DNA of 54,482 nt, taken from assembly GCA_903914615.1 (NCBI GenBank), contig CAIWPS010000719.1, positions 1 to 54,482 on the forward strand, in the 5' to 3' direction. A model generated the notes under the pieces. That model ran no database searches. It was not told where the DNA came from and saw only the letters and a program-made list of their open reading frames with translations. Of the stretch, positions 11,609-34,029 are shown piece after piece. Position 1 is the stretch's first letter. Each line of letters opens with the position of its first letter. The position numbers were made by a program, and so were the translations under genes. This stretch comes from an uncultured beta proteobacterium (lineage in GTDB: Bacteria > Pseudomonadota > Gammaproteobacteria > Burkholderiales > Burkholderiaceae_C).

Positions 11609-12127
11609 ATGCAGCTCAAGGAAATCGACGACGCCGCCGCGGCGCTCGCCAACGTCAAGATCCCCGCGATCGCCACCCTCTGGCCCGACCAGGGAGGCCG
11701 CAACGGCGGCCTGATGCGCGGCATCGATGGCGGACCCGACTACTTCCTGATCTACGCCGACGACCAGGCGGCGGAGGCCGAACTCGAGTGGGGCGGCTAC
11801 GGCAAGGAAGAGTCCGGCGCCAAGTCCGACCATGACGGCCTGGCCAACACGCGCGCGCTGATCGCCAGCGAGCACAGCCACCCGGCCGCAGAGTTCGCCG
11901 GCGAAGCGCGCGCGGGCGGCTTCAGCGACTGGTACATCCCGGCGCGCCGCGAATGGCGCGTGCTCGCGGGCAAGGTGCCCGACGCCTTCAAGCCCGACTG
12001 GTACTGGTCCTCGACGCAGTACTCGCGCACCAACGCGTGGGTGCAGGACTTCGGCGTCGGCTACCAGATCCTCGACGGCAAGTTCTTCTCGCGTCGCGTC
12101 CGGCTCGTCCGCAGATTGTTCCTTTGA
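11609..12127 (+). CDS. DUF1566/CLec-fold DGR target protein 1 (remote target)
   Basis: DWYIPARRE, WYWSSTQYS...AW...RVRLVRR; C-terminal variable repeat. Confidence 0.9.
   Translation: MQLKEIDDAAAALANVKIPAIATLWPDQGGRNGGLMRGIDGGPDYFLIYADDQAAEAELEWGGYGKEESGAKSDHDGLANTRALIASEHSHPAAEFAGEARAGGFSDWYIPARREWRVLAGKVPDAFKPDWYWSSTQYSRTNAWVQDFGVGYQILDGKFFSRRVRLVRRLFL
12014..12117 (+). repeat. DGR variable repeat VR1
   Basis: 104-bp ungapped match to 19235-19338 and 19881-19984. Confidence 0.92.
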
Positions 12128-13123: not shown

Positions 13124-13575
13124 TGGCCAGCGTTACTCACGGCATGCACAACACGCGTACCTACGTGATCTGGCGCGCGATGAAGGCTCGCTGCACGAAT
13201 CCAAACGTCGACAGCTTTGTCCGCTACGGCGGCAGCGGCGTCACCGTGTGCGCCGCCTGGCTTGCGTCCTTCCAGGCCTTCCTGGGCGACATGGGCGAAG
13301 CACCGGCCGGGATGTCGATCGATCGATTCCCGAACAAGACCGGCAACTACGAGCCCGGGAATTGCCGGTGGGCGACTTGGCGACAGCAGAACGGAAACCG
13401 AGTCGACAACCTCGTCCTAGAGCTCAACGGCCGTAGCCAATGCGCTGTCGCTTGGGCGCGGGAGATGGGCTACGAGAAGTCGCTGATCGTCGAGCGCGTG
13501 CGCCGGGGCTGGTCCGCCGAACGCGCCATCTTGACGCCTCCTCGTGACAACCGTGCCCCGCGGAGGTGCGCATGA
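13123..13575 (+). CDS. HNH-type homing endonuclease
   Basis: HGM...W..MK.RC.NPN...YGG.G..VC..W...SIDR...GNYEPGNCRWAT. Confidence 0.88.
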   Translation: MASVTHGMHNTRTYVIWRAMKARCTNPNVDSFVRYGGSGVTVCAAWLASFQAFLGDMGEAPAGMSIDRFPNKTGNYEPGNCRWATWRQQNGNRVDNLVLELNGRSQCAVAWAREMGYEKSLIVERVRRGWSAERAILTPPRDNRAPRRCA

Positions 13576-17923: not shown

Positions 17924-18618
17924 CCGCCGACACCATCGAAGCCGAGTCGATCGAAGCCAAGATCGACGCCCACACCCGCGCCGAGCTGCGCGACCTGGGC
18001 CTCTTCTACGACACCGAGACCACGGGTCTGCCGCTGTTCGAGAAGCCCAGCGAAGACCCGCGCCAGCCGCACGTGGTACAGCTCGGCGCGCTGCTGGTCG
18101 ACATGGACTCGCGCGAGATTCTCGAGCAGTTGGACGTCATCATCCGCCCCGATGGCTGGCACATTCCCGAGGAAGCCGCCAAGGTGCACGGCATCACGAC
18201 GCAGTTCGCGCTCGAGGTGGGCATCCCCGCGAAGGAAGCGTTCGAACACTTCCTGGCCATGTGGGGCGCCAACGGGGTGGTAACGCGAATCGGATTCAAC
18301 GAGCCCTTTGACGCTCGCCTGGTGCGCATCGGCATGTTCCGCCACTTCGATGCCCAGGCGGCTGACGCGTGGAAGCTCGGCCTGGCGCACGACGTCATGC
18401 GCGTGGTGTCGCCCATCTGCAAGCTGCCGCCCACCGAGGCCATGAAGCGCGCCGGCCGCGGCAAGCAGTTCAAACAGCCCAAGCTGAGCGAGGCCTACCG
18501 GCACTTCTTCGGCGAAGAGCTGACCGGCGCTCACGGTGCGCTGGCGGACGCGCGGGCCACGATGCGCATCCACTTCCACCTCGAAGACCTCAAGCGGGCC
18601 GAACGCGCCGCGGCCTGA
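17920..18618 (+). CDS. DnaQ/DEDDh 3'-5' exonuclease
   Basis: YDTETTG, FNEPFD, AHGALAD. Confidence 0.92.
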   Translation: MTADTIEAESIEAKIDAHTRAELRDLGLFYDTETTGLPLFEKPSEDPRQPHVVQLGALLVDMDSREILEQLDVIIRPDGWHIPEEAAKVHGITTQFALEVGIPAKEAFEHFLAMWGANGVVTRIGFNEPFDARLVRIGMFRHFDAQAADAWKLGLAHDVMRVVSPICKLPPTEAMKRAGRGKQFKQPKLSEAYRHFFGEELTGAHGALADARATMRIHFHLEDLKRAERAAA

Positions 18619-18730
18619 CCCAGTTTCCAGCCCGCAACCGAGCCGCGCGTCTCCTCCCTTCGCACAACGATTCCGGCTGCCGCGCTTCAGCGCAAGGGCT
18701 TCTTCTTCCACCGCCAACGAAAGGCACCTC

Positions 18731-19348
18731 ATGAACGCACCGCAATCCATCCAGACGCAGGTCGCCGCGCTCACCACGCTGACCATCGGCACCAAGCTCG
18801 AAGTCGGCTTCTTTGCCGGCTACATCAACACGCCCGACGGTGTCTTCGGCATCGAGGCGGCGCCCAAGGCCAGCGAGTTCGAAGGCATCTGGCTGCCGAC
18901 CTACACCGACTTGCCGGGCGCCCGCAGCTACTTCGACGGCGCCGCCAACACCATCGCGATGGCGAATGCGGGCAGCGAGATCGCCAAGAAGGCGCTGGCC
19001 ACCGAGATCGGCGGCCTTCGCGACTGGTACATCGCGTCGCGAGACGAGCTCGAGCTGCTCTATCGCGGTCTCAAACCGACTCGGGAGGAGAACTACGTCT
19101 ACCGCAACGGCGAAAACCCCTCGTCTCTCCCCGTGGGCTACCCGTACACCGAGGCACTGCCGGCACAGACGTCGGTTGCCATCTTTCAGAAGGGCGGGCC
19201 CGAAGCGTTCGACACGGCCTGGTACTGGTCCTCGACGCAGTACTCGCGCTACGTCGCGTGGATGCAGCACTTCGCCGGCGGCGGCCAGAACTACGTCGGC
19301 AAGAGCTTCTCGCGTCGCGTCCGGCTCGTCCGCAGATTCAAGGCTTGA
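18731..19348 (+). CDS. DUF1566/CLec-fold DGR target protein 2
   Basis: DWYIASRDELE, WYWSSTQYS...RVRLVRR. Confidence 0.9.
   Translation: MNAPQSIQTQVAALTTLTIGTKLEVGFFAGYINTPDGVFGIEAAPKASEFEGIWLPTYTDLPGARSYFDGAANTIAMANAGSEIAKKALATEIGGLRDWYIASRDELELLYRGLKPTREENYVYRNGENPSSLPVGYPYTEALPAQTSVAIFQKGGPEAFDTAWYWSSTQYSRYVAWMQHFAGGGQNYVGKSFSRRVRLVRRFKA
19235..19338 (+). repeat. DGR variable repeat VR2
   Basis: Matches VR1/VR3; differences only at codon positions 1-2. Confidence 0.92.
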
Positions 19349-19403
19349 TCCTTCAATCCTTTCAACCTGTGCCGGCTGCCGACGCCGGCCAACGGAGACC
19401 TCA

Positions 19404-19994
19404 GTGATCACGATCCAGAACATGCACGTCACGCTCAGCGCGCACAACCCGATGGCCTCGGCGTTCGTTGCTGCGCTGCTGGCCGGCGCCGATGATGCGC
19501 CATCGACAGAAGACGCCGCGACCAGCGCCATCCCACCCATTGGTGCCATCTGGCCTGGCGAGGGCGGCCGCAACGGCGGGCTCATGCGTGGTGTCGACGG
19601 TGGCCCCAACTACTGGTTGATCCTGGCCGAGGGCGCCGCCGCGACGGCCGAACTCGCTTGGGGTGGCTACGACCAGGACACCGGTGCGACGTCGGATCAC
19701 GACGGCCTGGCCAACACGAAGCTGCTGGCCGAGAGCGGGCTGGACTTTCCCGCCGCGAAGTTCGCCCACGCCGCGCGCCTGGAGGGCAAGGACGACTGGT
19801 ACCTGCCCGCGATCCGCGAGTGCCGGCTGCTCTCGGCCAACGTGCCCGAACTGTTCGAGACCGGCTATCACTGGAGCAGCACGCAGTTCTCGCGCGACCT
19901 CGCGTGGGTGCAGACCTTCGGCGTCGGCACCCAGGGCACCGGCGACAAGCTCAGCTCGCGTCGCGTCCGGCTCGTCCGCAGATTGTTCCTTTAA
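19404..19994 (+). CDS. DUF1566/CLec-fold DGR target protein 3 (paralog of target 1)
   Basis: WPGEGGRNGGLMRG, DWYLPAIRE, HWSSTQFS...RVRLVRR. Confidence 0.9.
   Translation: MITIQNMHVTLSAHNPMASAFVAALLAGADDAPSTEDAATSAIPPIGAIWPGEGGRNGGLMRGVDGGPNYWLILAEGAAATAELAWGGYDQDTGATSDHDGLANTKLLAESGLDFPAAKFAHAARLEGKDDWYLPAIRECRLLSANVPELFETGYHWSSTQFSRDLAWVQTFGVGTQGTGDKLSSRRVRLVRRLFL
19881..19984 (+). repeat. DGR variable repeat VR3
   Basis: Matches VR1/VR2. Confidence 0.92.
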
Positions 19995-20013
19995 CCCTTG
20001 AATCCTTCGAGCC

Positions 20014-20376
20014 ATGATCCACACCGATCTGCCGATCTACGCCAAGGGCCGCGACCTGCTGTCGCTGGCTCTTGACGTGCAGCGCCAGCTGCCACGTGAC
20101 ATGAAGCGTTCGATCGGCGAGCGCATTCACATGCACTGCGTCGACATGCTCAACGAGATGGCTCTCGCGAACGCAACGAAGCAGGCCTCGCGCGTGAAGC
20201 ACATCGAACGGCTGCTGGAGCTGCAGCGAGCCACTCAAGTCTTGCTCCGCGTGAGCCATGACAAGGGATGGGTCGCGCACAAGCTCTGGGGTCGCGCGGT
20301 ACTCCTGCTCGACTCGATCGGCAAGCAGGCCGGTGGCTGGCTCAAGTCCGCATACGGCAAGGCGCCTGCAGCATGA
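20014..20376 (+). CDS. avd: DGR accessory variability determinant (four-helix bundle)
   Basis: HTDLPIY...PRD.K..IGERI...IGKQAGGW; directly after the target genes. Confidence 0.88.
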   Translation: MIHTDLPIYAKGRDLLSLALDVQRQLPRDMKRSIGERIHMHCVDMLNEMALANATKQASRVKHIERLLELQRATQVLLRVSHDKGWVAHKLWGRAVLLLDSIGKQAGGWLKSAYGKAPAA

Positions 20377-20409
20377 CGGTCAAGGCCCTCATGCCCGCGC
20401 GCATGAATC

Positions 20410-20439
20410 TGGACAGCGCACCCGCGGCGGACGTACACT
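20410..20439 (+). promoter_or_regulatory. Putative sigma70 promoter of the C4 cassette
   Basis: TGGACA-N18-TACACT. Confidence 0.55.
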
Positions 20440-20496
20440 CCACTCGCACCCACTCATTGGGTGTCGGGATTGGCGTCCTGAAGCATCCGCGGCGAG

Positions 20497-20518
20497 AGCC
20501 GCATCCCTGCGGCTTTTT
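20497..20518 (+). terminator. Leader terminator/attenuator hairpin upstream of the C4 RNA
   Basis: AGCCGC-ATCCCT-GCGGCT followed by TTTT. Confidence 0.65.
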
Positions 20519-20536
20519 CATGCCCGGTTCGGTTTA

Positions 20537-20617
20537 TGGCGGCCCAGGCGGGGAACCGCAAGGTTCACCGGTTCCGCTCCGCGGGTGCCCGGTACGCCAA
20601 CCCGTCTGGGCTGCCGC
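20537..20617 (+). ncRNA. C4-like antisense RNA
   Basis: Closing stem GGCGGCCCAGGCGGG/CCCGTCTGGGCTGCC, GAACC-GCAA-GGTTC hairpin, ACCGG..CCGGT hairpin; ACGCCAA complements TTGGCGT at 20470 and 20623. Confidence 0.85.
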
Positions 20618-20669
20618 CCCGATTGGCGTCGTGACGGCAGTTGACACAACTGCACCCACGGAGCCGATC

Positions 20670-21179
20670 ATGGACTCATGCCCTGTCGTCGAAGAATGGC
20701 GACCCATCCCCGAATTCCCGCGCTACGAGGTGAGCAACTTCGGCCGCGTGCGCTGGCGCCATCGCGTGCGCAAGCCGTTCCCCAGCGTTGATGGCTATCC
20801 GCTGGTTTCGTTCTGGCGGGACGGCAAGTCGGTGCATCGCTTCGTGCATGTTCTGGTCGCCGAAGCCTTCATCGGCCCAAAACCGGAGGGGTTGGTCGTT
20901 CGCCATCGCAACGGCATCAATTCGGAATGCCACGTCGGCAATCTGGCGTACGGGACGTACCTTGAGAACTCGGCCGACATGGCGACTCACGGAACTGTCG
21001 TCAACGGCGAGCGCCACCCAGCCAGCAAGTTGACCTCGGATCAGGTACTGGAAATCCGCCGCCGCCACATTCCGCGCGACCCGCGCCACGGGCTCAATGC
21101 GCTGGGCCGCGAGTTCGGGCTCGCCACGAAGTCCGTACAGGCCATCGTCCAGCGCAGGACATGGAAGCACCTGCCGTGA
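20670..21179 (+). CDS. NUMOD4-HNH homing endonuclease
   Basis: EEWRPIP...YEVSNFGRVR; VHVLVAEAFIG..P...VRHRNG...NL; GERHPASKLT. Confidence 0.92.
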   Translation: MDSCPVVEEWRPIPEFPRYEVSNFGRVRWRHRVRKPFPSVDGYPLVSFWRDGKSVHRFVHVLVAEAFIGPKPEGLVVRHRNGINSECHVGNLAYGTYLENSADMATHGTVVNGERHPASKLTSDQVLEIRRRHIPRDPRHGLNALGREFGLATKSVQAIVQRRTWKHLP

Positions 21180-21322
21180 CGATCAACAGCTACCTCGGCC
21201 TGTTCCGCCAGACGCCAGCCAGCCACCACGTCCGCGCCCAGTTGGCCAACGCGGCCCGCCGGCGCGGCTTCTCAGTCAACGCCTCCCTCACCAAGGTCTA
21301 TCGCAAGACCGCCAACGCCTGA
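21176..21322 (+). pseudogene. C-terminal remnant of a DGR reverse transcriptase
   Basis: Read by hand: VTINSYLGLFRQTPASHHVRAQLANAARRRGFSVNASLTKVYRK; NSYLG is a thumb-region motif; lies where the RT would end after avd. Confidence 0.75.
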
Positions 21323-21335
21323 AAGGCACATCACC

Positions 21336-21596
21336 ATGATCAAACCCACCATCGGTCGCGTCGTCATCGTCCAGCGCGGCAGCCACGACGCGCAGCCGGA
21401 CGGCTGGCCCGCGTTCGTCAACAAAGTGCACAGCGACCGCTGCATCAACGTCGCGGGCTACAACGAGTGGGGCACGACGGTGTCCTTCAACTCGGTACCG
21501 CTGCTGCAGGACGACGACACGCCGCCGGCGGCCGGCCCGTATGCCGAGTGGATGCCGTACCAGAAGGCCCAGGCCGAGAAGCACGCCGCCAGCTGA
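21336..21596 (+). CDS. Conserved phage hypothetical protein
   Basis: MIKPTIGRVV...W.WMPYQ type small protein. Confidence 0.75.
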   Translation: MIKPTIGRVVIVQRGSHDAQPDGWPAFVNKVHSDRCINVAGYNEWGTTVSFNSVPLLQDDDTPPAAGPYAEWMPYQKAQAEKHAAS

Positions 21597-21723: not shown

Positions 21724-21900
21724 ATGAACGACACCACGAAGAAGCCCCGCGGCTTCGCAGCCATATCGCCCGAGCGCCAGAAGGAGATCGCCAGCCAGGG
21801 CGGCCGCGCCGCGCACGCCGGCGGCAAGGCCCACCAGTTCACGCCCGAGGAGGCCCGCGCGGCCGCCGCGGCGCGGGGCGACCGCAAGCCCAAGGCCTGA
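21724..21900 (+). CDS. KGG-repeat stress-induced protein (YciG/GsiB-like)
   Basis: Read by hand: RGFAAISPERQKEIASQGGRAAH..GKAHQFTPEEARAA. Confidence 0.85.
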   Translation: MNDTTKKPRGFAAISPERQKEIASQGGRAAHAGGKAHQFTPEEARAAAAARGDRKPKA

Positions 21901-22968: not shown

Positions 22969-22988
22969 ATCACCAACCAGGAGAACTC

Positions 22989-23927
22989 ATGACTTTCGAA
23001 CTCACCCAGATGACCGCCGTGCGCGTGCTCGACGTGCGCACCCTAGCCGCCAAGAACCGAGAGCCCGGTGACCTGGTCGGCGCACAGCTACTCCTGCGGG
23101 CAACCCTGCCCATCGCGAGCCTCGCGATGTTCGACCCAGCGCTGCCGGGCATGTTCGCCCGCAAGGCCGCGCCGAAGGTGCAGGGCCAGCTCGATGGCGT
23201 CGAGGAGCTCGAGCTCACCGAAGTGGGCCAGCACGTCAAGAGCATGCCCTGGGTGTACGACCAGTCGGGTAACACGATCGAGATCGACCGCGGCCTGGGC
23301 GGCACGAGCAACCTCAAGCTCGTCGACTGCACCGTGCACAGCGTCTCGTGGAAGGTGCAGGAAGGCGTCTCGGCGACGTACACGTGGACCGTCGACGCGC
23401 CGTCGCTGGCCGAGACGATCCGCGGCAAGCTCACGAGCCTGAAGCGCACGGAGATCCCGATCACGCAGGTGGCGCCTCAGGCTGAAGGACAGCAGGACTT
23501 CGACGCGCCTGCGCCGCGTCTCACGCCCGCCCAGCCGCGCCAGGCCAACGCCGAGGGCAAGACGGTGGCGCAGAAGGCGGCCGAGGTCAAGGGCGCGGCC
23601 GGCATGAAGCCGACCGTCGCGTGGCCGTTCCCGCAAGACGGCACACCCGGATCGGGCCCGAACGCCAAGAGCGTGCCGCCGGCGGACGCCACCAGCGCAC
23701 TGCTGGCCGACGTCGCGAAGAAAGGCCCGGGCCACAGCGCCAACCCGAAGCCGAAGGCTGCGGCCAAGAAGACGGTGGTGAAGAAGGTCGAAAGCCGTCG
23801 TCCCGCTGCGTACAAAGACCCGAAGTCGGGCCAGACCTGGACCGGCCGCGGGCTCAAGCCGCTTTGGTTGACGCAGGCGCTCGCCGGCGGTGCGAAGCTG
23901 GATGACTTCCAGGTGAAGGCGCACTGA
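22989..23927 (+). CDS. Protein with a C-terminal H-NS DNA-binding domain
   Basis: YKDPKSGQTWTGRGLKPLWL...G.KLDDF. Confidence 0.85.
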   Translation: MTFELTQMTAVRVLDVRTLAAKNREPGDLVGAQLLLRATLPIASLAMFDPALPGMFARKAAPKVQGQLDGVEELELTEVGQHVKSMPWVYDQSGNTIEIDRGLGGTSNLKLVDCTVHSVSWKVQEGVSATYTWTVDAPSLAETIRGKLTSLKRTEIPITQVAPQAEGQQDFDAPAPRLTPAQPRQANAEGKTVAQKAAEVKGAAGMKPTVAWPFPQDGTPGSGPNAKSVPPADATSALLADVAKKGPGHSANPKPKAAAKKTVVKKVESRRPAAYKDPKSGQTWTGRGLKPLWLTQALAGGAKLDDFQVKAH

Positions 23928-25854: not shown

Positions 25855-26177
25855 TGCCCATCGCCCCTGAGAACCGCGCCCGCTACCCGAAGGACTGGAA
25901 GGCGATCGTCGAGCGGGTGCGAGAGCGCAGCGGCGACCGGTGTGAGGGTTCGCCGGCGTTCCCTGACTGCCGCGCGCCAAATGGTCAGCCACACCCGGTC
26001 ACCGGCTCGCGCGTCGTGCTCACCACCGGCCACCTCGACCACGTACCAGAGAACTGCGACCTGGCCAACCTGCGCCACTGGTGCCAGCGCTGCCACCTGG
26101 TGTATGACGGGCCGCACCACGCGGAGTCACGCGCAGCGCGCAAACGCGCCGCGGCGGCCACGCAGGAGCTGTTCTGA
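25854..26177 (+). CDS. Small HNH-like protein
   Basis: MPI.PEN..RYP.DW...R....CE...LTTGHLDH.PENC...NL..WCQRCH. Confidence 0.8.
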   Translation: MPIAPENRARYPKDWKAIVERVRERSGDRCEGSPAFPDCRAPNGQPHPVTGSRVVLTTGHLDHVPENCDLANLRHWCQRCHLVYDGPHHAESRAARKRAAAATQELF

Positions 26178-26593
26178 TGGACTGGCAGCCTCATCCCCTC
26201 GACCACGAGAGCCGCGCCCTGTGGCACCTCGAGGAGGTTGTCGACCAGGCCGTGGGCGAGCACCCGCAGCTGCGCCAGCCCATCGTGCACCGGCGCGACG
26301 GCGAGGACTACTCGTACAAGGGCATCTCGAGCATGCTGCGCCGGGTCTTCGCGAAGGTGCGCGCCGAGGTGCCGGCGCTGGCCGCGATGGAGTCGTTCGG
26401 GTTCCGCGACCTCAAGGGCAAGGGCGCCACGGACATGTGGCTGGCCGGCGAGGCCATCGAGCGTATCCAGCTGCTGTGCGGCCACGCCAAGGCCTCAACG
26501 ACCGAGATCTACATCAAGGCCCGGTGGCGCGAGACCGCCAAGCCCAACGCCTCCGAAATACTCCTGCCGCCGCGTTCAATATCCAGTATTTGA
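26177..26593 (+). pseudogene. int: N-terminally truncated tyrosine integrase
   Basis: FRDLKGKGATD...QLLCGH...TTEIY; only 138 aa; adjacent to attP. Confidence 0.8.
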
Positions 26594-26699
26594 TCCAGCG
26601 CGCAGCCCGGGTAAACTCACGTCGCTGGAAAGAAGAATATTGGAAAGAAGCCGGGGCGCAGCGAGCATTCATGCGGCTTGCAGCCAAACCCGACGCGGC

Positions 26700-26746
26700 G
26701 ACTGTTAATCCGTAGGTCCCTGGTTCGAGCCCAGGTCGGGGAGCCA
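26700..26746 (+). other. attP core = 3' half of tRNA-Asn(GTT)
   Basis: GACTGTTAATC anticodon loop, GGTTCGAGCC T-arm, CCA end; 5' half absent. Confidence 0.9.
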
Positions 26747-26766
26747 TCCCTCATGCGAAGAGAATC

Positions 26767-33499: not shown

Positions 33500-33534
33500 G
33501 ACAATTGACCCGCATTGACCAAGAATCGAGGCCC

Positions 33535-34029
33535 ATGAAAGCCTTCACGCGCGAGCAATCCATCGACCTGTTTTCCGCCAAGTTCTCGAAGGGCGATGGC
33601 TGCTGGGAATGGACGGCCAGCAGAAACCGCAACGGCTACGGGAATTTCAGATCGCGCACCTTCTTCCCTGGCGAGCTGCTCGCGCACCGCATCTCGTGGC
33701 TCATCCACAAGGGCGACATCCCTGCCGGACTGCAGGTGCTGCACAACTGCGACAACCCGTGCTGCGTTCGCCCGGACCACCTGTTTCTTGGCACGATGGT
33801 CGACAACATGAAAGACATGGCCGCCAAGGGCCGCCATGCAACGAAACGGGGCACGGAGCATCTTCCGCGAGGCGCGGCGCACCACTATGCACAACGCGGC
33901 CCGAAGATCACGCGCCAGCAGGCGTGCGACATCAGGGCGTCGCGTGCGTCGAACAAGGCACTTTCCGACTTCCTCGAAGTCGACAGGTCGCTGATCTCGA
34001 AGATCCGCACCGGCCGCATTTGGAAGTAG
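33535..34029 (+). CDS. HNH homing endonuclease (opposite strand)
   Basis: CWEW...GYG...AHRISW...VLHNCDNP.CVRPDHLFLGT..DNM.DM. Confidence 0.92.
   Translation: MKAFTREQSIDLFSAKFSKGDGCWEWTASRNRNGYGNFRSRTFFPGELLAHRISWLIHKGDIPAGLQVLHNCDNPCCVRPDHLFLGTMVDNMKDMAAKGRHATKRGTEHLPRGAAHHYAQRGPKITRQQACDIRASRASNKALSDFLEVDRSLISKIRTGRIWK

Follow-up and report, generated by a model that had tools for sequence, protein, structure and literature searches.

A C4-type antisense RNA and an HNH endonuclease in place of the TR and RT of a phage DGR

In a phage genome that still carries three diversified target genes, a unit made of a C4 antisense RNA and an HNH endonuclease gene has replaced the TR and RT of the phage's DGR. 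The DNA analysed (54,482 nucleotides, hereafter the window) is the entire circular genome, with a 141-nt overlap of its termini; its gene content includes lysozyme, Cro-like, integrase-like and recombination genes, and the C4–HNH unit lies in the rightward early operon, after two Lcl_C (DUF1566) genes and a bAvd gene recognized by Pfam. The HNH protein is probably a homing endonuclease of the free-standing kind, directed at DGR alleles that are still intact; here it would stand under C4 control, which is predicted to restrict it to a brief pulse after phage entry. That it is likely to be a selfish nuclease follows from its position in the TR–RT slot together with the presence of close kin in the same slot of unrelated phages.

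Results

The remnant belongs with BPP-1-type DGRs (RT-15 subgroup, Lcl_C targets), of which the window keeps three VR-containing targets, avd, the 5′ hairpin of the RNA, the coupled RT start and the RT tail, but neither the TR nor the RT core. All of these parts, like those of the C4 unit and the nuclease, lie on the + strand. The orphaned Lcl_C target genes (DUF1566; PF07603) occupy 11609..12127, 18662..19348 and 19380..19994, with VRs at 12014-12113, 19235-19341 and 19881-19980. Measured against the TR of L017, a locus that has both TR and RT, the three VRs differ at 15, 15 and 17 positions, every one of them a TR adenine (47/47), a record of past DGR activity; the VRs were therefore copied from an almost identical TR, and its loss is recent. 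The target at 11609-12127 is the first gene after the early promoter, 7 kb from avd, and shares its 3′ end with the other two targets.

Homology to L017 frames the replacement on both sides. The two loci are 90% identical over 18615-20412 and 92% identical over 21185-21365, and between these flanks L017 has its RT-15 RNA, TR and RVT_1 (about 1205 bp) where the window has C4 and HNH (about 770 bp). To the left lie an intact avd gene (20014..20376; Pfam bAvd over cut-off; product 98% identical to L017 Avd) and the remnant of the RT-15 RNA 5′ hairpin (20360..20412), which a permissive Rfam scan picks up as a sub-gathering RT-15 match to the 5′ hairpin only (20360-20441, 42.5 against 82); identity with L017 stops at 20412, which places the left junction immediately after it. 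To the right, the C-terminal 48 codons of the RT remain open (21176..21322, identified by tblastn), beginning with a GTG that overlaps the HNH stop; at the DNA level this right arm is 91% identical to the end of the L017 RT and 67% identical to the tail at a second locus, L306. Contigs from a second study span the passage from avd into the leader (19963-20521) and that from the C4 target sites a2 and b2 into HNH (20619-20949), so the left junction and the C4–HNH link are no assembly artefact; none of the second-study pieces listed spans the right junction.

The TR and full RT of an active DGR are absent from the window and from its host bin, G000. A trans-acting RT or TR in that bin was considered and rejected for the G000 assembly (98% complete, 866 contigs), in which the TR–RT DNA of L017 matches the three VRs only and, among eight RVT_1 matches, none is DGR-RT-like beyond one at 23%. 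With the TR and RT core gone and neither found elsewhere in G000, the DGR is therefore inactive in cis.

The ancestral arrangement can be read from related loci. A full RT-15 RNA was found in 17 of the 18 Avd loci scanned, and in 63 of 78 RT-15-pattern loci an ATG overlapping the avd stop opens an RT frame of 440-475 codons. At L017 (4360-5742) and 62 other RT-15 loci this frame continues without a stop across the structured RNA and the TR, so that the DGR RNA doubles as coding sequence. The 78 unique RT-15-pattern loci resolve into 69 with an RT core, five that have lost it without gaining an HNH gene, three chance matches and the window. Loss without HNH thus affects 5/74 other true RT-15 loci (L026, L260, L027, L271 and L294), and these cases could be either neutral deletions or escape products of cutting. 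Two of them, L026 (912-925) and L260, have kept the RT tail, so tail retention needs no homing, and the end-points of the L026 deletion fall within about 12 nt of the window junctions. Seen from the DGR side, HNH alleles are rare: none occurs in 54 Avd loci.

The gene that fills the slot encodes a 169-aa, I-HmuI-like NUMOD4-HNH endonuclease (20670..21179; Pfam NUMOD4 and HNH_3 over cut-off). I-HmuI (1u3e) is its only solved relative, both by profile search (E 1.7e-20) and by comparison of an AlphaFold model (E 4.9e-9), and the match runs over the full length, with the layout NUMOD4, HNH and a C-terminal helical (helix-turn-helix) DNA-binding domain. His79, Asn100 and Asp103 are invariant across 15 close relatives. 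Two of the four I-HmuI motif positions differ: Asp74 of I-HmuI corresponds to Arg78 in the window, arginine being common in the family (35/66), and Asn83 corresponds to Cys87, where 49/66 relatives keep asparagine. The corresponding I-HmuI residues are catalytic or metal-binding; with three positions invariant and two motif positions substituted, nuclease activity of the window protein is likely, not certain. It is under strong purifying selection, with a dN/dS of 0.058 between the window and L306 genes and of about 0.04 between those of L317 and L320.

A longer frame also leads into this gene. From the former RT start, an ATG that overlaps the avd stop, translation stays open through the C4 leader into HNH (20373..21179, 268 codons), and a fusion of RT start to HNH is found again in the proteins P0067 and P0071. 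We predict that this frame serves as a read-through expression route. A 303-aa frame from 20268 was rejected as the protein, since its first 35 codons overlap avd and relatives conserve the ATG at 20373.

Further features of the phage genome may be recorded here. Within 26177-26760, a 138-aa integrase fragment that looks truncated is followed by an attP-like stretch resembling the 3′ end of a tRNA, in which ARAGORN finds no full tRNA. An endonuclease-like gene with a Pfam HNH_3 domain lies at 33505-34029, on the strand opposite to the virion genes, and a second, at 13125-13575, was judged endonuclease-like by eye and has zero Pfam matches.

We then collected 174 HNH loci by protein similarity, not by context, and searched each by profile for C4, for the core and the tail of the RT, and for Avd and Lcl_C. 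The top 11 (at least 127 bits) have Lcl_C upstream in 11/11, an RT tail in 10/11, avd in 4/11 and an RT core in 0/11; among the other 163, Lcl_C, RT tail or avd occurs in 0/163. The boundary, 127 versus 114 bits, was taken from the data themselves, and the 11 loci represent nine distinct neighbourhoods and five lineages. All lineages besides the window's own, 42-59% identical to the window protein, lie in DGR slots. At L318 (2227-3022), the sole exception of the 11, the nuclease comes directly after two Lcl_C genes and no RT tail is detected. In a quick midpoint-rooted tree, one 45-row group (SH-aLRT 89), 32 rows of which come without DNA context, holds every DGR-slot HNH, and rows outside that group have DGR context in 0/42 cases.

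The closest comparison is L306, the locus of P0067, which is the other member of the window protein's 90% cluster and starts with the RT's first residues. The phage of L306 is unrelated to that of the window, the two being 70% identical in avd and about 50% in the distal flanks; the locus reads Lcl_C, Lcl_C, avd, RT-15 hairpin, HNH, RT tail, with the same right junction as the window and without C4. Two phages in culture that belong to the L317 lineage, Medea1 and Aurca01, repeat the layout; it was not found at five weaker HNH matches examined beside them. Near-identical nucleases (94-100%) recur in backbones whose distal flanks are only about 50% identical: between L315 and L316 the stretch that starts in mid-avd and reaches the RT tail is identical, with divergence outside it, and L317, L320 and L322 are 94-97% identical in HNH and 48-51% in their distal flanks. 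DGR-derived leaders are also carried by HNH proteins taken without DNA context (P0067, P0071, P0159 at E 3e-6, P0290 at E 3e-25 and P0306 at E 3e-4). In wider searches, the clade profile gave four weak matches in 400 genomes at order level, all of them outside DGR slots. At the DNA level the complete cassette has no match among 50,697 annotated phages, and among 200 family genomes 12 match short parts of it; a search of viral contigs for the HNH-end pattern found nothing.

Two hallmarks of free-standing homing endonucleases are thus present, an empty cognate allele (L017) and spread across divergent genomes with co-converted flanks. The preliminary description of this DNA had guessed at intact DGR alleles as the target of the nuclease, and that guess now has strong genomic support from the empty allele, the recurrence in DGR slots and the VRs. 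The main competitor is a cassette swap without DGR-directed cutting, in which the slot is an exchange hotspot that took up an HNH gene on a single occasion, the gene then spreading through ordinary homologous recombination, with selection against hypermutation as a possible aid, its real target lying elsewhere or its role being DNA binding only. Conserved arms would permit the exchange of any cargo, the RT is also lost by plain deletion (5/74), the middle Asn is replaced by Cys, and junctions vary with nuclease lineage, right ends being spread over about 60 nt, avd being kept or lost and P0290 even keeping its TR, so that one shared cut site is not proven. Yet no cargo other than this HNH group fills the slot in the loci examined, identical tracts sit in unrelated backbones, purifying selection is strong with His79, Asn100 and Asp103 conserved, and five lineages, 42-59% identical apart from the window's own, have all stayed in DGR slots. 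We regard such a swap as unlikely, though it is the alternative that deserves the most weight.

Turning to the RNA, the preliminary description had proposed a C4-type antisense switch ahead of the HNH gene, and Rfam bears this out: C4 (RF01695) at 20532..20621 is the window's sole match above cut-off (59.3 bits against a gathering score of 45; model positions 1-87 of 87), and the first gene behind it is the NUMOD4-HNH gene. Of the two covariance models that the description had named, C4 is therefore matched above gathering and c4-a1b1 only below it in a permissive scan (20433-20484, 30.7 against 46.7 bits, E 6e-6), as is isrK (20446-20519, 43.5 against 50). Along the window come promoter, a1, b1, terminator, C4, a2, b2 over the GGAG and then the gene at 20670, an order that agrees with what is described for P1/P7 C4 in parts of PMC5320573 and PMC12197685 and with the IsrK/SeqA–CI comparison in part of PMC4825925.

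The sigma-70-like promoter (TGGACA-18-TACACT, 20410..20439; one found against 0.1 expected) shares its first TGG with the DGR remnant, and its −35 hexamer recurs, identical and at equal spacing, upstream of the C4 unit in contigs of the runs X8 and X10, from other studies. The a1/b1 leader (20446..20494), with IsrK/SeqA-like hairpins, is recognized from the sub-gathering isrK and c4-a1b1 matches and from pairing; a1 is the TTGGCGT at 20470-20476, and b1 (20483-20492) forms 10/10 pairs with the C4 loop, one of them G-U. An intrinsic-terminator-like hairpin with a T run (20496..20518, stem 20496-20515, fold −12.3 kcal/mol) confirms the one described near 20497; a consensus terminator scan does not list it. 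Within the RNA, b′ is the loop at 20577-20588 and a′ is ACGCCAA at 20594-20600. Downstream, a2 (TTGGCGT, 20623-20629) shares one predicted hairpin with b2 (20652-20663), assigned by pairing, which includes the Shine-Dalgarno GGAG at 20660-20663, 6 nt ahead of the HNH ATG at 20670. The complementarity reported between ACGCCAA (20594) and the TTGGCGT copies at 20470 and 20623 is correct, and so is that between the loop and b2 with the HNH Shine-Dalgarno, at 11/12 positions (12/13 with one added base). The computed energy of the whole loop–b2 duplex is −25.8 kcal/mol; because of a central C-A mismatch its longest unbroken run is 6 bp, which does not exceed the 4-8 bp that the same loop reaches at foreign loci.

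Four features were absent from that description: b1, the promoter, the open frame from 20373 and an extra loop-complementary site in the promoter spacer (20418..20429), a near copy of b1. This site forms 10/10 pairs with the C4 loop, coincides with codons 16-19 of the avd-coupled frame and exists only on read-through transcripts; the spacers shown for the C4 unit in X8 and X10 lack it. Through this site C4 may reach the read-through route that would bypass the switch. In anatomy, 20532-20621 is a genuine C4 switch, and from its sequence we predict that C4 represses HNH and so limits the nuclease to a short burst after phage entry. Downstream of HNH and on the same strand lie genes for a KGG stress-repeat protein (21724-21900) and a protein with an H-NS C-terminal domain (22986-23927), both of which may be under the C4 promoter.

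The pairing exceeds chance. TTGGCGT has 12 copies on the + strand of the window, of which just two lie within 200 nt of each other, one on either side of the C4 RNA; complements of the loop at 11/12 or better number only two in the 54 kb, both within 160 nt of the loop. For comparison we assembled 53 other C4 loci, three below-cut-off matches being excluded and 11 loci coming from one genome. Among the 40 of 54 loci that the pairing script parsed, a′ matches its own upstream a1 in 37/40 and its own downstream a2 in 32/40; it matches the a1 site of another locus in 3/1270 pairs.

A first gene was called at 48 of the other C4 loci and not at five. Antirepressor-type Pfam domains (AntA, Bro-N, KilA-N, Rha, ORF6C) mark 14/48 of these genes, and the rest comprise five HTH_36, one SymE, one weak CsrA match and 27 of no family, a variety that identifies C4 units as general leaders. 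The earlier emphasis on an HNH gene instead of an antirepressor therefore needs dividing: an HNH first gene is seen at 0/48 of the other C4 loci, and the lack of an antirepressor-type domain, shared with 34/48 other loci, is not special. Nor is an open frame rare in itself, since the leader is open in 14/49 C4 loci. One 2.7-Mb genome, G059, contains 11 above-cut-off C4 units (loci L106, L116, L119 and L121-L128), which front AntA-type and HTH_36 genes with identical first few residues; this suggests that in G059 the promoter–leader–start unit moves, fusing to new genes.

A further reading would make the nuclease a general toxin or anti-competitor directed at host or unrelated phage DNA and silenced by C4 in the lysogen, in the manner of a toxin–antitoxin pair. 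P4 kil is lethal when released, which is one point in its favour, and C4 fronts a SymE toxin in one sampled locus. The full-length I-HmuI architecture with its long-site DNA-binding domains argues against it, as does the wiring of C4-less copies to the strong avd coupling site or directly behind target genes, and it leaves the strict DGR-slot location unexplained; we give it very little credence. The SymE locus itself, L137 (1635-1832), has its C4 unit ahead of the SymE-family gene, a possible C4-based toxin–antitoxin arrangement.

How regularly do C4 and this nuclease travel together? On DGR-slot HNH loci C4 is confined to the window (1/11), so the nuclease element in itself does not include it, and an Rfam scan of nine DGR-slot loci found none. 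Nor does it occur in 54 Avd loci, or upstream of more general NUMOD4-HNH relatives in 88 loci. The earlier description of an RNA-silenced nuclease module holds for the window, where C4 fronts HNH, and does not extend to the 10/11 DGR-slot loci that lack C4. The pairing does recur in the wider nuclease group. In P0071 the RT start is followed by a leader that matches C4 units in translation (E 3e-9) and then by an HNH 53% identical to that of the window, and P0175 has a similar translated-C4 leader (E 2e-6) on a more distant HNH; both are known as proteins only, and the best C4-leader match among control stretches was E 0.006. In a 16.7-kb soil contig of run X11, the C4 unit leads into a related NUMOD4 gene whose sequence diverges after its first 27 codons. 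The unit in contigs of X8, X10 and X12 has one to four differences over 151-234 nt, and across these four runs, from three other studies, the upstream DNA is different where shown. From these sequences, C4 appears to have joined the nuclease group more than once. Within the window lineage the order of events is suggested by L306, whose left junction holds eight more DGR bases than the window and no C4, which fits HNH first and C4 later; the C4 unit appears to have entered at the TGG common to the DGR RNA and the −35 box.

That C4 is rare on this nuclease bears on whether it serves the nuclease at all. C4 might instead be kept for the distal early operon (genes from 21336 on), with HNH filling the icd/kil/orf45 position of P1, P4 and Gifsy-1 and its control a by-product, a situation compatible with homing. 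C4 units front very varied genes, 10/11 DGR-slot HNH loci do without one, no + strand terminator is listed from HNH to 21800, and the RT tail frame would maintain downstream coupling. Against this, C4 leaders recur on this HNH group (P0071, P0175, X11) as against 0/48 sampled C4 loci, and b2 directly covers the HNH Shine-Dalgarno. We judge this account improbable, less so than the toxin reading.

Discussion

The account we favour, a homing endonuclease directed at intact DGR alleles, would work as follows. The enzyme would make its nick at a conserved position within the RT core, in the interval from the TR end to the NSY motif; the RT core is the one part lost in every nuclease lineage. Repair would proceed through the only sequences common to unrelated DGR phages (the target-gene end, avd and RT-15 hairpin on the left, the RT tail on the right), copying HNH in, deleting its own target and freezing the VRs. 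HNH would thereby inherit the expression signals of the RT, being translationally coupled to avd, as at L306, and in turn coupling the RT tail that follows. A later C4 insertion at the TGG microhomology would have given HNH its own promoter in the window lineage.

On entry, HNH and the distal genes would be expressed until processed C4 binds a1/b1 and a2/b2, a shut-off independent of the phage repressor, for which P1 provides a precedent in its repressor-independent C4 pulse. A superinfecting genome could thus home into a related prophage that is already resident in the cell. In early transcription of the lytic cycle, ribosomes coupled to the avd stop would read in frame through terminator and C4, bypassing the switch; because the avd-coupled RT start runs in frame through the leader into HNH, C4 silencing may be evaded in this way. 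P4 eta/kil, where a frame likewise runs through the RNA region into the next gene, is a parallel for such bypass by coupled translation. In Gifsy-1, orf45-anrP has a frame of the same kind (PMC4825925).

The C4 units of P1/P7 (RF01695, with c4-a1b1, RF03163), the P4 CI RNA with seqA/seqC and Gifsy-1 isrK-orf45-anrP share with the window the promoter, a1/b1, the terminator, the three-stem RNA and a b2 over the ribosome-binding site (PMC5320573, PMC12197685 and PMC4825925, each in part). Where the P1, P4 and Gifsy-1 units have icd/ant, kil or anrP, the window unit has an HNH endonuclease as first gene; it is also joined to what is left of a DGR and has an upstream frame from the former RT start. 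Compared with P1/P7 immI (c4-icd-ant), it has no icd, and the next genes have no antirepressor-type Pfam match.

The window resembles free-standing phage homing endonucleases (T4 mobA/mobE, segF/segG) in that its nuclease gene stands alone, recurs almost unchanged in unrelated backbones together with tracts of its flanks, and has RNA structure at the ribosome-binding site (PMC2988022). The same paper describes homing by free-standing HNH enzymes, marker exclusion and the control of nuclease translation by RNA. The window differs from these endonucleases in that its HNH gene takes the place of about 1.2 kb (TR and RT core) of another mobile element, where theirs lie in introns or between essential genes, in that its predicted target is deleted from its own allele, and in that its predicted control is a diffusible antisense RNA where theirs is a cis hairpin plus a late promoter.

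A literature search in which subscription journals were thinly covered yielded no paper on C4 with HNH or a homing endonuclease and none on DUF1566 with HNH, and for DGRs with HNH or homing endonucleases it returned reviews and unrelated genomes only. The part of PMC8867640 that mentions HNH concerns retrons; PMC2864571 lists the C4 and c4-a1b1 motifs, and the searched part of its supplements holds no descriptive text on C4 gene context. The parts of the system are individually known; the conflict between mobile elements to which their combination points, a selfish nuclease removing a hypermutation machine, was not found in print.

More tentatively, and with distinctly less confidence than in homing itself, we suggest a homing-endonuclease lineage specialized on DGRs, which would cut and replace the RT core, take over the RT's coupling and freeze the diversified genes, and which would have recruited C4 more than once, gaining a repressor-independent pulse on entry that might allow a superinfecting phage to convert a prophage DGR even in an immune lysogen. 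Medea1 and Aurca01 are cultured carriers of the nuclease lineage. Should DGR RT genes prove to be its specific target, the enzyme would be a tool for switching DGRs off. A phage immunity RNA would here time a homing event in place of an antirepressor, and displacement by an HNH gene could explain how so many phages came to carry orphan VRs beside the remains of a DGR.
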